Origin: an uncultured Planctomycetales bacterium
Lineage (GTDB): Bacteria > Omnitrophota > Gorgyraeia > Aquiviventales > CAZWYX01
Reading direction: 5' to 3'
Assembly: GCA_964638485.1 (NCBI GenBank)
Contig: CAZWYX010000001.1
Span: 20,752-65,238 of the forward strand
Length of the DNA: 44,487 nt
In this document: piece by piece, positions 37,104 to 40,280 of the stretch
Layout: each line of letters begins with the position of its first letter
Position numbering within the stretch: the first letter of the stretch is position 1
Position numbers and translations under genes: made by a program
Notes under the pieces: model-generated
What the model saw: the letters and a program-made list of their open reading frames with translations, nothing else
Told to the model about the DNA's origin: nothing
The model's database searches: none

Positions 37104-37496
37104 TTAGGCCGGGGCAGGTTTTTGGCTGAGGATCAGGCGGATGCGCGCCAGGAGTTGATCCGATTCGAAGGGCTTTTCGACGTACTCGAGGGCGCCCAGT
37201 TGGGCGGCGAGGTGTTTGTCAGCCAGGTCGGTCACCGCCGTCACCATGATGATCGGGATCTGCGCCGTCTCGGTGCGGCCACGCAGCTCGACCGCGACCA
37301 GTTCCCCATCTAGCTTGGGCAGTTTGATGTCGAGGAGTATGAGATCCGGACGTTCGGCCACCGCCGCATCCACCCCACTGACCCCATCCGCTGCCAGGAG
37401 TACGCGGTACCCCTGGCCTTCCAAGAGGCGCTTCATCATCTTGGCCAAATCCAGATCGTCTTCGACGACGAGAATCGTCTTCCCGGCAGGGGTCAT
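37104..37496 (-). CDS. single-domain response regulator (CheY-like receiver)
   Basis: 130 aa. ILVVEDD...DLILLDIKLPKLDG...PIIMVTA...K. Confidence 0.9.
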   Translation of the reverse strand: MTPAGKTILVVEDDLDLAKMMKRLLEGQGYRVLLAADGVSGVDAAVAERPDLILLDIKLPKLDGELVAVELRGRTETAQIPIIMVTAVTDLADKHLAAQLGALEYVEKPFESDQLLARIRLILSQKPAPA

Positions 37497-38416
37497 GCGG
37501 CGCGCATCCGACGTGGCAGGGGTTCTTCTGCCAAACTCTCTTTGACGAAGTAGAGCGGATGCTGCGCCAAGTCCACCGACCGCTCCTCAGGCAACCGTCC
37601 GCCAGCGCGATCGTAGTGGATCGCGACCTGCGGACGCAGCGGCAGCCCCTTGTGAATCGCGGTCACGCGTCCCATCTCGCCGGTGTTCAAGCGCACCCAC
37701 GTGTTCAAGGGGTAGATCCCGACTTGATCGAACAAGGCTTTGACGAGGCGCGGTTCAAACAGGTGCTGGGTTTTTAAGATCGTGCGCACCGCAGGGAACG
37801 CTAGCACCGTCGGACGATCCGCCCGCGGATGGGTGAGCGCCTCGTAGAGATCCGCCAGGCGCACCACTTTGCTGAGTTCGCGCTCGGCCACGGTGAGCTC
37901 ACGTGGCGGTGACGTGGTCGTCGCCGTCTCCGACGCGCGCGGCTCGAGTGAATCGAGGTACACGATGAGCTGTGTAAACTCTGGGATGTCGCCCAAGAGG
38001 GCCAGGCACTCGTAGGCATGACCACGCATGTCGTGGTATTTGACCGTCCGCGGCTCGGCCCCATTCACCGCCTTGGTCAGTCCCAGATCATGCAGGAGCG
38101 CCGCAGCCCCGACGTCACGGACAACCGTCTCCGCATACTGGAGGGCCTTAGCGATCACCATCGCCAAGATGCTCGTGTTGACCGAATGGCCGAAGAGGAA
38201 CTGCGGGAAGCTTGAGCGGACGGTCAAGCCGACTAACTTGGGTTGGTGGGTCTGCGTCGCCTCGAGCAGGCGATCCGCGATGTGCAGCACCTCGGCCGCT
38301 GGAATCGGCTGTCCCGCGGTGACCGCCTGGTGCAGCCGCTCCATGAACGCCAGTGCCTCGTCGTAGATGACTTCGACCGTCGGAGGCGCTGTGACCGTTG
38401 CCAACGAGTCAGCCAT
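37493..38416 (-). CDS. HD-domain metal-dependent phosphohydrolase-like protein (no GYP motif seen)
   Basis: 307 aa. GHSVNTSILAM...AALLHDLGL. ATGA overlap with the receiver gene. Confidence 0.65.
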   Translation of the reverse strand: MADSLATVTAPPTVEVIYDEALAFMERLHQAVTAGQPIPAAEVLHIADRLLEATQTHQPKLVGLTVRSSFPQFLFGHSVNTSILAMVIAKALQYAETVVRDVGAAALLHDLGLTKAVNGAEPRTVKYHDMRGHAYECLALLGDIPEFTQLIVYLDSLEPRASETATTTSPPRELTVAERELSKVVRLADLYEALTHPRADRPTVLAFPAVRTILKTQHLFEPRLVKALFDQVGIYPLNTWVRLNTGEMGRVTAIHKGLPLRPQVAIHYDRAGGRLPEERSVDLAQHPLYFVKESLAEEPLPRRMRAA

Positions 38417-39740
38417 GGACGACGGCTCCCTCCACCGCTGGTGCCAGCGGCACCTCGCACGCGAAGACCGTCCCGCCCGTGGGCTTGGAATCGGCGTGGA
38501 TGCTCCCCTGCTGGAGCTCGAGGAGCTCGCGACAGATCGCCAGGCCTAAGCCAGTCCCTGGCCGGCTCGGATCCGCGTCGAGCCGCTCAAACCGCTGGAA
38601 CAAGCGCTCCTTCTTCTCGGGCGCAATCCCGATGCCGGTATCCTCGATGCGAATCGTCATGCGGTCATCGCTCACCTGCGCACCCACGGTAATCGTTCCC
38701 CCTTCGGGGGTGAACTTGACTGCGTTACTCACCAAGTTGCCGATGACCTGGATCATCCGGTCACGATCCGCCAACATCGGCGGGAGATCTGGCGGCATCT
38801 CGACATGGATCGTGCGTCGTCCGATGAGCGGTTGATGCACCCGCAGTGTTTCGTCCACAATCTCTTCCACCCGACACGGGCCGATGCGCAAAGCGAGTTT
38901 GCCCGCTTGAATCTTCGACAAGTCGAGAAGGTTGGTGATGAGTTCGGTCAAGCGGTTGAGGTTGCGGGCCATCACCGTCATGAACTCGCGCTGCTCTAAG
39001 GTGAGCGGTCCCAAGGTGCCGTTGAGGAACAGTCCAATGGCTTGCTTCATCGCGGTCAAGGGTGTGCGCAGCTCGTGGTTGACCATGGCGACGAAATCGT
39101 CTTTGACGCGCGAGATGTGCTGCAACTCTTCGTTGGCATCGGCCAACTGCTCGGCGGCATCCTTGAGGTGCGCTTGCGACTCTTGCAACTGCTGGCGGGT
39201 GTCGCGTTCACGGAGGATTTCCCGGTGGAGCTGCCGGGCAAAGAGGGCGGTAAAGGCTGCGGCCAGCGTCATCGCCAACACGCGGGTGCTCACTTGGACG
39301 GCTAAGGGCGACAACTGCGTGGGCGCCTGCAGTGCATCCAGGAACGCCAGGACGCCCCATCCCACGATGGCTAAGCCAAACACCACCCACGCGCGCAACA
39401 GATCCAGGACCAAAAAGGACGCCAAAATCGGGAGTAAGTACAAGGGACCAAACGGACTCTCGACCCCACCCGTCAAATGGAGGAAGGCCGTGACGAAGGC
39501 GATCGCGGCGACCGCGCCATAGAACGTCTTGCGGAAGCCGATCCACGATTTGGGCAAGAGGTGATGCCAGACGACCGCGGAGAAGCCCAAGATGACGGCC
39601 AAGGCATAGATGTGGACGAGGTTCGTGGCAACGCCGGGCAGGTGCGCTAAAGCAAAACAGCCGGCCGCCGCGACCCAGTAGAGCAGCTCGAACCAGAGTT
39701 CGAACTGCTGAATGCGGATGCGATCAATCGGTGAGGTCAT
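38409..39740 (-). CDS. membrane sensor histidine kinase
   Basis: 443 aa. About 6 N-terminal TMs. H-box FVAMVNHELRTPL. N, G1 and G2 boxes (NLVSNAVKFT, DTGIGI, GTGLGLAI). Confidence 0.92.
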   Translation of the reverse strand: MTSPIDRIRIQQFELWFELLYWVAAAGCFALAHLPGVATNLVHIYALAVILGFSAVVWHHLLPKSWIGFRKTFYGAVAAIAFVTAFLHLTGGVESPFGPLYLLPILASFLVLDLLRAWVVFGLAIVGWGVLAFLDALQAPTQLSPLAVQVSTRVLAMTLAAAFTALFARQLHREILRERDTRQQLQESQAHLKDAAEQLADANEELQHISRVKDDFVAMVNHELRTPLTAMKQAIGLFLNGTLGPLTLEQREFMTVMARNLNRLTELITNLLDLSKIQAGKLALRIGPCRVEEIVDETLRVHQPLIGRRTIHVEMPPDLPPMLADRDRMIQVIGNLVSNAVKFTPEGGTITVGAQVSDDRMTIRIEDTGIGIAPEKKERLFQRFERLDADPSRPGTGLGLAICRELLELQQGSIHADSKPTGGTVFACEVPLAPAVEGAVVHG

Positions 39741-39945
39741 CAGGCGTGCTCTCCAGCACCGGAGCCGCTGTCACGCGCCGACACATCTGTTCGTTCATCC
39801 ACTGTTCGAGCGCGCCTCGGTCAAATCGCCACTGGTTGCCGACTTTAAAGGCCGGCAGTTTCTGTCGCCGCGCCAGACGGTACACCGTAATTTCATCCAC
39901 ATCCAAGAGATGGGCCACCTCGCGCGCGGACATCACAGGTTTCAT
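39724..39945 (-). CDS. excisionase/MerR-type helix-turn-helix DNA-binding protein
   Basis: 73 aa. MSAREVAHLLDVDEITVYRLARRQKLPAFKVGNQWRF. GAGGAGG RBS. Overlaps the kinase start by 17 nt. Confidence 0.8.
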   Translation of the reverse strand: MKPVMSAREVAHLLDVDEITVYRLARRQKLPAFKVGNQWRFDRGALEQWMNEQMCRRVTAAPVLESTPDDLTD

Positions 39946-39980
39946 CGCTCCTCCTCACCTGTTGCCAGCTCAGGGCACAC

Positions 39981-40006
39981 AAAAAGCGGCCGCGCAATCG
40001 GCCGCT
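39981..40006 (-). terminator. intrinsic terminator in the operon leader
   Basis: Minus-strand AGCGGCCG-AUUGCG-CGGCCGCU followed by UUUUGUGUG. Confidence 0.7.
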
Positions 40007-40245
40007 GCATGGGACACGGACTCGATGGCACTGGCAACCCGGCCATCCGCCGACGATCTCTGGCGGATCCGTGGCTTTGCCCTCCTCCGCGCTGCTTCGC
40101 GAAAGCTCGCAGCGCTTCAGCGGGTCCTGCATCGCTTCTCTAATCGCTTGAGCGACGGAGAGCGATGCAGGACGTCCCCCGATTACTCGGGGTTTGCCCT
40201 GAGCAGTACCTCTTAACGTGCTTCGTACGCAGTACTGTACTCTCT
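39981..40245 (-). promoter_or_regulatory. structured 5' leader: candidate c-di-GMP-I (GEMM-I)-like riboswitch carrying a ~93-nt insertion
   Basis: CAGGGCAAACC-CCGA-GUAA-UCGG-GGGACG (40201-40173). CAAAGCCACGG-hairpin-GGCCGGGUUGCC (40079-40033). Closing helix GGUACUG/CAGUGCC. The terminator follows. See the finding at 39968-40280. Confidence 0.45.
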
Positions 40246-40251
40246 AGTACA

Positions 40252-40280
40252 AGTATAGAAGATACCGCGCTCAAATACAA
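40252..40280 (-). promoter_or_regulatory. candidate promoter TTGTAT-17-TATACT for the leader RNA
   Basis: -35 at 40280-40275 and -10 at 40257-40252. GTAC-containing palindromes (GTACTAGAGAGTAC, AGTACAGTACT) lie around the predicted start. Confidence 0.45.

Follow-up and report, generated by a model that had tools for sequence, protein, structure and literature searches.

Upstream of a helix-turn-helix (HTH), histidine kinase, HD and receiver gene operon, on the minus strand of a 44,487-nucleotide (nt) stretch of contig CAZWYX010000001.1 (assembly GCA_964638485.1; the whole stretch is hereafter called the window), lies a leader RNA which an initial annotation, made from the letters alone, had likened to GEMM-I riboswitches, the class I sensors of cyclic di-GMP (c-di-GMP). 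Few riboswitch folds have been studied as thoroughly as GEMM-I, for which crystal structures and a settled textbook consensus exist, and the locus raises the question of whether an aptamer interrupted by 93 nt of additional hairpins represents a new junction architecture or an aptamer disrupted by an insertion, a choice that the annotation had left open. Our results favour a new architecture over a disruption, since about 50 diverse RNAs carry the same module at the same bond, with covariation in its stems. The leader (40245-39946, minus strand) is thus probably a class I c-di-GMP riboswitch of a recurrent two-hairpin subclass, acting as a transcriptional OFF switch.

To answer this question, we began with the aptamer itself. 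Every core part of GEMM-I is present in the 184 nt between 40210 and 40027 of the minus strand, namely the P1 helix, G20, a GGCAAACC-6 bp-GUAA-GGGAC hairpin, GCAAAGCC with A47, the P3 helix and GGGUUGCC with C92. The 5' half of the aptamer reads GGUACUG-CUCA-GGGCAAACC-CCGA-GUAA-UCGG-GGGACG at 40210-40173, and the 3' half reads CAAAGCCACGG...GGCCGGGUUGCC at 40079-40033, with CAGUGCC at 40033-40027; both segments had been annotated, and their letters and coordinates were verified. The parts listed below were placed in part by alignment to Rfam families and to R1, a covariance model built from 41 sequences of the two-hairpin class described further on, with the window excluded.

40204-40210, minus strand: 5' strand of P1, GGUACUG, pairing with 40033-40027 through six Watson-Crick pairs and one G-U pair.
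40196-40203, minus strand: J1/2 (CUCAG), G20 (40198), and G21 and C22 (40197-40196), from the alignments to R1 and RF01051.
40174-40195, minus strand: AAA (40195-40193), upper P2 CCCCGA-GUAA-UCGGGG (40192-40177) and GAC (40176-40174), from the RF01051 alignment.
40124-40173, minus strand: extra hairpin 1, 50 nt, a palindrome whose base G-UCC...GGA-C is flush with GAC.
40081-40123, minus strand: extra hairpin 2, 43 nt, with a CC...GG base, an internal loop and a 7-base-pair (bp) stem.
40034-40080, minus strand: G45-C46, A47-A48, P3, a G and C92 (40034), from the RF03168 and R1 alignments.
40027-40033, minus strand: 3' strand of P1, CAGUGCC, also used as the 5' part of the antiterminator proposed here (40034-40019).

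The closing of P1 by CAGUGCC and GGUACUG, as first proposed, had a pair probability of 0.997 in the isolated aptamer and is kept in the leaders of two orthologous operons (L005 and L011), where GGUGCUG stands opposite an identical CAGUGCC and the A-U pair becomes G-U. The first hairpin shows the 2-bp stem, the AAA/GAC loop, the 6-bp stem and the GNRA loop of the family (40197-40174 plus 40080-40079). G21 and C22 (40197-40196) pair with C46 and G45 (40079-40080), the GUAA tetraloop is of the GYRA type, the posterior of the RF01051 alignment is near 1 over 40174-40195, and the upper P2 differs from that of L005 (CCGCGA/UCGCGG) by one compensatory change from C-G to G-C. P3 reads AGCC-A-CGG-AUCCGCC...GGCGGAU-GG-CCG-GGUU, with pair probabilities of at least 0.985, and the AGCC/GGUU base and 3' GCC of RF01051 are found at 40076-40033. 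Mapped via the Rfam consensus, the positions that we take to be the ligand contacts in the published Vc2 structures are G20 at 40198, A47 at 40078 and C92 at 40034. Further upstream, CAGUACU (40237-40231) resembles the 3' strand of P1 and pairs with its 5' strand in the minimum free energy (MFE) fold; as a candidate anti-P1 strand it has a counterpart in L011 (CAGUGCU) and none in L005, and it was dropped from the model.

At gathering scores, Rfam gave no match in the 44-kb window. A permissive search of 451 nt returned two adjacent alignments, RF01051 (c-di-GMP-I) at 40208-40125 (31.6 bits, E = 1.9e-4, model positions 1-87) and RF03168 at 40120-40029 (28.3 bits, E = 4.5e-4, positions 1-81; gathering score 65.9). 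The search of the intact strand that the initial annotation had pointed to therefore recovered both halves of the aptamer, each at a score below gathering, and the assignment to the GEMM-I family stands, because Rfam matches both halves and because the aptamers of the orthologous leaders L011 and L005 belong to GEMM-I and lack any interruption (53.3 and 42.7 bits, respectively). Each match in the window draws its score from one genuine aptamer half, with an inserted hairpin standing in for the other. We attribute the shortfall to the interruption by the 93-nt module, since the uninterrupted L011 reaches its 53.3 bits with RF03167. Removing 40173-40081 by direct reading restored the RF01051 consensus core (GGCAAA, GACGCAAA, and the P3 base with its 3' GCC), and the leftover mismatches include one J1/2 adenine, the second base of the tetraloop (GUAA as compared with GAAA), the A of AGC and the tetraloop-receptor motif. 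The tetraloop receptor is usually missing where the tetraloop is of the GYRA type (Weinberg et al., PMC1950547). The features of the aptamer exceed chance, given these E-values for the two halves, an expectation of 0.02 occurrences per window for the GGCAAACC-N-GGGACG motif, and the folding of the whole leader as compared with shuffled sequence (z = -5.8).

The module occupies 40173-40081, exactly between GAC and GC, that is, between C44 (40174) and G45 (40080) in Vc2 numbering. In RF01051 the 3' strand runs unbroken from GAC to GC and then into an AAA linker, and here 93 nt stand between them. The size of the insert had been given correctly in the initial annotation, and its boundaries, placed there at 40080-40172, are better drawn one position further along. 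Hairpin 1, which reads GUCCUG...CAGGAC at 40173-40124 and corresponds to the 50-nt palindrome already noted, has 13-nt arms that are 100% complementary, a folding energy of -34.1 kcal/mol and a base-pair probability of 0.95. The 7-bp stem previously described at 40089-40115 (GCGCUGC/GCAGCGC) was also found, and proved to be the inner part of the 43-nt hairpin 2 (-20.4 kcal/mol for the whole hairpin), which is joined to hairpin 1 and to G45 by 0-nt linkers. By nearest-neighbour energies, the window's five-helix fold lies 5 kcal/mol above the MFE, with probabilities above 0.94 for P1, hairpin 1 and P3, and 0.5 for P2.

To determine whether this arrangement recurs, metagenome contigs were scanned with the pattern GGCAAACC-N12-GGGACG-(not C)-33 to 93 nt-GCAAARCC, which gave 75 loci. 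Of these, 20 fall within coding DNA and lack the structure, about the number expected by chance. In about 50, a first hairpin (usually GUCC...GGAC) follows GGGAC directly, and a second one follows without a linker and ends directly before GCAAAG, after which the RNA continues into a normal P3 and GGGUUGCCGAA. Across the class the module measures 39 to 93 nt, the hairpin loops are conserved in neither sequence nor length, and the G21-C46/C22-G45 pair that bridges the module is invariant in 55/55 members. Among 51 sequences used for a stem test (50 scan hits judged genuine and the window itself), both stems were flush with their anchors in 46, and both reached at least 5 bp in 33, as compared with 0.6% of shuffled inserts.

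Covariation was evaluated on an ungapped alignment (A4) of the helix bases of 41 members, from which the window was left out and in which N replaced the loop letters; it was used instead of a full-length MAFFT alignment (A3) that proved unusable across the variable hairpins. In A4, 96.3% of the cells were paired, none of 500 shuffles attained the observed figures, and pairing fell to 30-48% in a control with slid partner columns. Hairpin 1 was paired in 96.7% of cells, with double changes in 5/6 pairs, and hairpin 2 in 91.9%, with double changes in 6/6; these figures come from aligned sequences related to an unknown degree. The stems of the module thus covary in the metagenome class (double changes in 11 of 12 pairs), which is the kind of support that the initial annotation had called for. 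An alignment based on R1 yielded the same pair statistics. On the window, R1 aligned over its full length (40208-40028, model positions 1-106, both hairpins included) with 60.5 bits and E = 2.8e-12, and the window shows the layout of the subclass, with hairpin 1 directly after GGGAC, a G-UCC/GGA-C base and 0-nt linkers. Over 76 sources the model gave 59 matches, among which the window ranked 39th, and no match in 20 chance loci. A mobile-element origin of the insert was rejected, since the insert occurs once in the window and the class members, which agree in the position and shape of the module, differ in its sequence.

The genes downstream of the class encode pilin, prepilin peptidase, PAS-GAF-HD-GYP and GAF proteins, DPBB lipoproteins, FG-GAP proteins, subtilase and an outer-membrane protein, which is the usual c-di-GMP set typical of GEMM-I. 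Rfam recognizes part of the class. Of 20 members tested, five passed RF01051 (37-47 bits), with the model skipping P2 and the module together, and the other 15 scored 30-42 bits, under the gathering score of their best family (RF01051, 35; RF03167, 59); the Rfam model passes over the module only by dropping P2. Since the window received no Rfam call and 15/20 members were below threshold, the c-di-GMP regulons of uncultured bacteria are incomplete and their riboswitches undercounted. A scan of viral contigs found 0 variant and 5 canonical forms, the counts being very small.

Several members of the class showed individual features. Two contigs carry a canonical-length and a two-hairpin GEMM-I about 1.7 kb apart (L037, 10897-10989 and 12662-12796; L060, 669-761 and 2433-2567), and one organism therefore uses both architectures. 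The member L036 (2142-2290) has GGUUGUC instead of GGUUGCC, which places a U at C92 as in c-di-GMP-I-UAU with G20 kept, and its ligand preference may be different. In a short member (L034, 1196-1271) pairing is also possible across the module, between the 5' arm of hairpin 1 and the 3' arm of hairpin 2, and the insert has this single long hairpin as its MFE structure. Several short members have near-identical arms in both hairpins (CCGCC/GGCGG), and by these predictions the module could fold in another way. The locus L088 (2422-2677) contains two ordinary GEMM-I aptamers in tandem, and was matched by the pattern because the second GCAAAGCC fell within range.

We then compared the layout with known systems. 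Like RF01051 and Vc2, the window has the P1/P2/P3 core, with GGCAAACC, a 6-bp stem, a GNRA loop, GGGAC and the AAA/GAC loop over a 2-bp lower stem, followed by the GCAAAGCC linker, P3 and GGGUUGCC, and G20, A47 and C92 are present; it likewise lies in a 5' untranslated region, with an intrinsic terminator after it and signalling or surface genes downstream. It differs from them in the 93 nt that form two hairpins between GAC and GC, and in scoring below gathering. RF03167, RF03168 and the cyclic AMP-GMP (c-AMP-GMP) riboswitches share the Rfam clan and fold, and RF03168 gave the best Rfam alignment of the 3' half of the window. Those families, however, change nucleotides of the pocket (G/G/C in RF03167, U/A/U in RF03168, and A at position 20 in c-AMP-GMP, or GEMM-Ib), whereas the window has G at 40198 and keeps G/A/C, its variation being architectural. 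Since positions 20/47/92 are G/A/C, the window is not a c-AMP-GMP, UAU or GGC variant. It resembles tandem GEMM-I in that its leader holds a series of hairpins and gives two Rfam matches side by side, but has one set of core motifs, and the extra hairpins lack aptamer features. In the original description of GEMM, the first hairpin consists of a 2-bp and a 6-bp stem with a 3-nt internal loop between them and nothing else (PMC1950547). We found no description of extra GEMM-I hairpins at C44/G45 in the full-text literature searched, which included that paper, many subscription papers and the RF01051 seed being outside its scope. The two-hairpin layout is apparently a conserved, undescribed architectural variant of GEMM-I, and not a broken sensor.

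Related operons were reached through homologs of the kinase and the HTH protein, in a lineage that is poorly sampled. The identical leader was present in four metagenome contigs of the same organism. Two further leaders, L005 and L011/L012, precede the same HTH-kinase-HD-receiver set of genes and share with the window the promoter, the palindrome described below, a near-identical P2, an identical 3' strand of P1, the terminator and CCAGUGCCAUCG. Their junction is the ordinary contiguous GGGACGCAAAAC, and the extra RNA that they carry (about 100 nt in L005 and about 60 nt in L011) sits within P3 and not P2. In L011 (1965-2040) this extra RNA is a long helix ending in two small hairpins, with its equivalent in L005 at 2640-2765. 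Between orthologs, the segment running from GAC to GGGUU in the middle of the aptamer is unrelated and its flanks are nearly identical, which looks like a cassette exchange as judged from these alignments. As the ortholog leaders differ, having extra RNA in P3 or no aptamer, the sensor part of the leader changes quickly, and the P2 module is specific to the lineage of the window among the orthologs found. The three states of the leader in one operon (P2 module, P3 extra RNA and no aptamer) offer a rare close-range view of riboswitch turnover.

A protein-based search for orthologous operons gave 152 pattern matches in metagenome contigs, none of them confirmed, and in genome contigs it gave two distant relatives only (26-31% identity), neither with such a leader. 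Kinase homologs proved too promiscuous to serve as a guide to orthologs, P0003 (L005) being the only useful one. Three other loci were set aside: L008, whose weak R1 match (19.6 bits) had no GGCAAA and no Rfam support and was dismissed as noise; P0010 (L006), a fused HTH-kinase in a pilus locus and not an ortholog; and P0126 (L007), whose contig ends before the leader.

In the structure that we propose, the hairpins enter the AAA/GAC loop on its 3' side, at the C44/G45 step, and would turn P2 into a four-way junction with linkers of AAA, GAC, 0 nt and 0 nt, and the aptamer into a five-helix RNA. In the simplest geometry the upper P2 would be stacked on the lower P2, and the two extra hairpins would form a second stack, a rod at the side; such stacking of the hairpins is most likely because a 0-nt linker joins them. 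The rod would point away from the P1/P2/P3 core and make no contact with the ligand, and c-di-GMP would be the expected ligand, given that G20, A47 and C92 are unchanged. The internal loop of P2 would thereby tolerate, and in many lineages maintain, a four-way junction, offering a natural test of how the pocket is constructed.

Several observations weigh against a functional two-hairpin riboswitch. The window does not reach the RF01051 gathering score of 35 (31.6 bits). The base of its hairpin 2 ends after 2 bp at a 6x6 internal loop, has a pair probability of 0.14 and is weaker than in most class members. In the covariation analysis, the boundary between hairpins 1 and 2 was picked for each sequence in A4 so as to maximise pairing, and the search pattern fixed GGCAAACC, GGGACG and GCAAARCC, so that conservation at these positions, the first G of hairpin 1 among them, was built in. 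The nearest orthologs have no module, and in this lineage it would be either a recent gain or a feature lost from the other orthologs. Two orthologs, L013 and L014, retain the promoter and the terminator with no aptamer, and the operon can therefore do without the sensor. Finally, the module lies one base pair from A47, a position from which a change in affinity or specificity is possible.

This last point leads to the alternative that survives best, although it is itself unlikely, namely that the class is a widespread P2 four-way-junction subclass whose junction alters function, through ligand specificity or affinity, a second input, or a timer of co-transcriptional folding. A somewhat more doubtful proposal is that the subclass senses a ligand other than c-di-GMP, or a second input (protein or small molecule) at the four-way junction. 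The module does reshape the conserved AAA/GAC loop so close to A47, but the window has the canonical G20, A47 and C92; the search pattern demanded the first two, which every hit therefore has in canonical form, and C92, left free by the pattern, is canonical in nearly all members, L036 with its U being a case in favour of another ligand. The base of hairpin 1 is also conserved beyond the needs of pairing (of 41 sequences, 37 have U as the second base, and 35 each have C as the third and as the fourth), while the loops of the hairpins, variable in sequence and length, are ill-suited to a second binding site, and the gene contexts are those of the usual c-di-GMP regulon.

We consider it improbable that the aptamer has been disabled by a palindromic insertion beside the pocket, in which case the leader would sense no c-di-GMP and act as a constitutive attenuator. 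The contiguous junction of L005 and L011 would fit such damage, as would the dispensability of the aptamer that L013 and L014 reveal in the operon family, yet the insert lies at the bond typical of the class, with the class-typical GUCC/GGAC base and 0-nt linkers, and its sequence is not repeated elsewhere in the window. The weak base of hairpin 2, the length of the window hairpins, at the long end of the class range, and the sub-threshold Rfam score also speak for a disabled aptamer, against which R1 gives the window 60.5 bits and all conserved core nucleotides are intact. The retention of the module by about 50 unrelated riboswitches, with compensatory changes, argues for selection and not damage. 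That the region consists of two tandem, half-decayed GEMM-I aptamers (40208-40125 and 40120-40029) is highly improbable, since the two adjacent full-length Rfam alignments that suggest it each include one half that any hairpin could supply, flagged for non-canonical pairs and contributing little score, while class hairpins can be as short as 14-19 nt without GEMM features, the GC/GC pair bridging the module is invariant, and one five-helix model covers the whole region.

Returning to the two-hairpin riboswitch, we asked how it might control the operon. The elements downstream of the aptamer are as follows.

39981-40006, minus strand: intrinsic terminator, AGCGGCCG-AUUGCG-CGGCCGCU and a U run, from a terminator scan.
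39968-39977, minus strand: UGCCCUGAGC, perfectly complementary over 10 nt to GCUCAGGGCA (40204-40195) and paired with it in the MFE structure.

The terminator, already recognized in the initial annotation, has a stem of eight pairs (40006-39985), seven of them G-C, followed by U5, and its G+C-rich stem shows compensatory changes in L005 (ACACAGCC/GGCUGUGU), L010 (GACGGCC/GGCCGUC) and L014 (GAGCGGCC/GGCCGCUC). The 3' strand of P1 plus five bases makes up CCAGUGCCAUCG, which is identical in the window, L005 and L011 and can form a duplex with the 5' arm and loop of the terminator (-14.0, -14.8 and -18.3 kcal/mol, respectively). Since this antiterminator duplex is possible and both of its partners are conserved in sequence, we propose a transcriptional OFF switch, in which the antiterminator would likely compete with both P1 and the terminator. 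With ligand bound, P1 (40210-40204 with 40033-40027) would be locked and the terminator (40006-39981) would form; without ligand, CCAGUGCCAUCG would pair with the 5' arm and loop of the terminator, and the resulting antiterminator would allow the HTH-kinase-HD-receiver operon to be transcribed. The 10-nt complement after the terminator, also pointed out initially, is real and extends to 13 nt if one mismatch is allowed, but the orthologs keep no more than part of it (UGCCC in L005 and UGAGC in L011). In read-through transcripts, UGCCCUGAGC would sequester the strand carrying J1/2 and G20 of the aptamer.

The leader, which the gene callers of three public sources left intergenic, is flanked by the following features.

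40252-40280, minus strand: promoter, with a TTGTAT -35 element (40280-40275), a 17-nt spacer and a TATACT -10 element (40257-40252).
40236-40251, both strands: perfect palindrome TGTACT-AGAG-AGTACA (6+4+6), overlapping the -10 element and the likely start site.
37104-39956, minus strand: the regulated operon, encoding HTH_17, histidine kinase, HD and receiver proteins (Pfam).
39956-39948, minus strand: ribosome-binding site GAGGAGGAG, at the start of the regulated operon.
39945-39724, minus strand: HTH_17 gene (Pfam).
39740-38409, minus strand: histidine kinase gene (Pfam).
38416-37493, minus strand: gene for an HD protein related to HD-GYP (Pfam and homologs).
37496-37104, minus strand: receiver gene (Pfam).

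The promoter hexamers, re-read in the sequence where they had first been placed, match 8/12 consensus positions, and the promoter was missed by a consensus scan because this lies below the cut-off. The same TTGTAT-17-TATACT, with identical spacing, is found in the orthologous leaders L005, L011 and L013, and L014 keeps TATACT with TTGTTT in place of TTGTAT. The palindrome over the start site has counterparts in L005 (TGTACTAGAAAGTACA, 2558-2573) and in L011 (1870-1885) and L013 (TGTATAGGAAAGTGCA); the form common to the window, L005 and L011/L012 is TGTACT-N4-AGTACA, which is partly degenerate in the ortholog promoters. In the two leaders without an aptamer (L013, 240-360; L014, 210-330) the palindrome is kept, and the terminator lies about 20-45 nt downstream of it with no visible antiterminator. 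We regard this palindrome as a candidate operator that may be bound by HTH_17, the product of the adjacent first gene, in which case the operon would be under both protein and RNA control.

The HTH-kinase-HD-receiver order is repeated in L001-L003 and L005. The HD protein of the window has a weak Pfam match (PF01966, 28.5 bits), and the HD-GYP domain PF13487 is present in its more distant homologs, which bears out the earlier suggestion that the operon makes a cyclic-dinucleotide ligand plausible. In this organism, c-di-GMP would thus be linked to a two-component system that shares an operon with an HD-GYP-related protein. The nine nearest relatives of the HD protein form a small, tight family found in metagenomes only.

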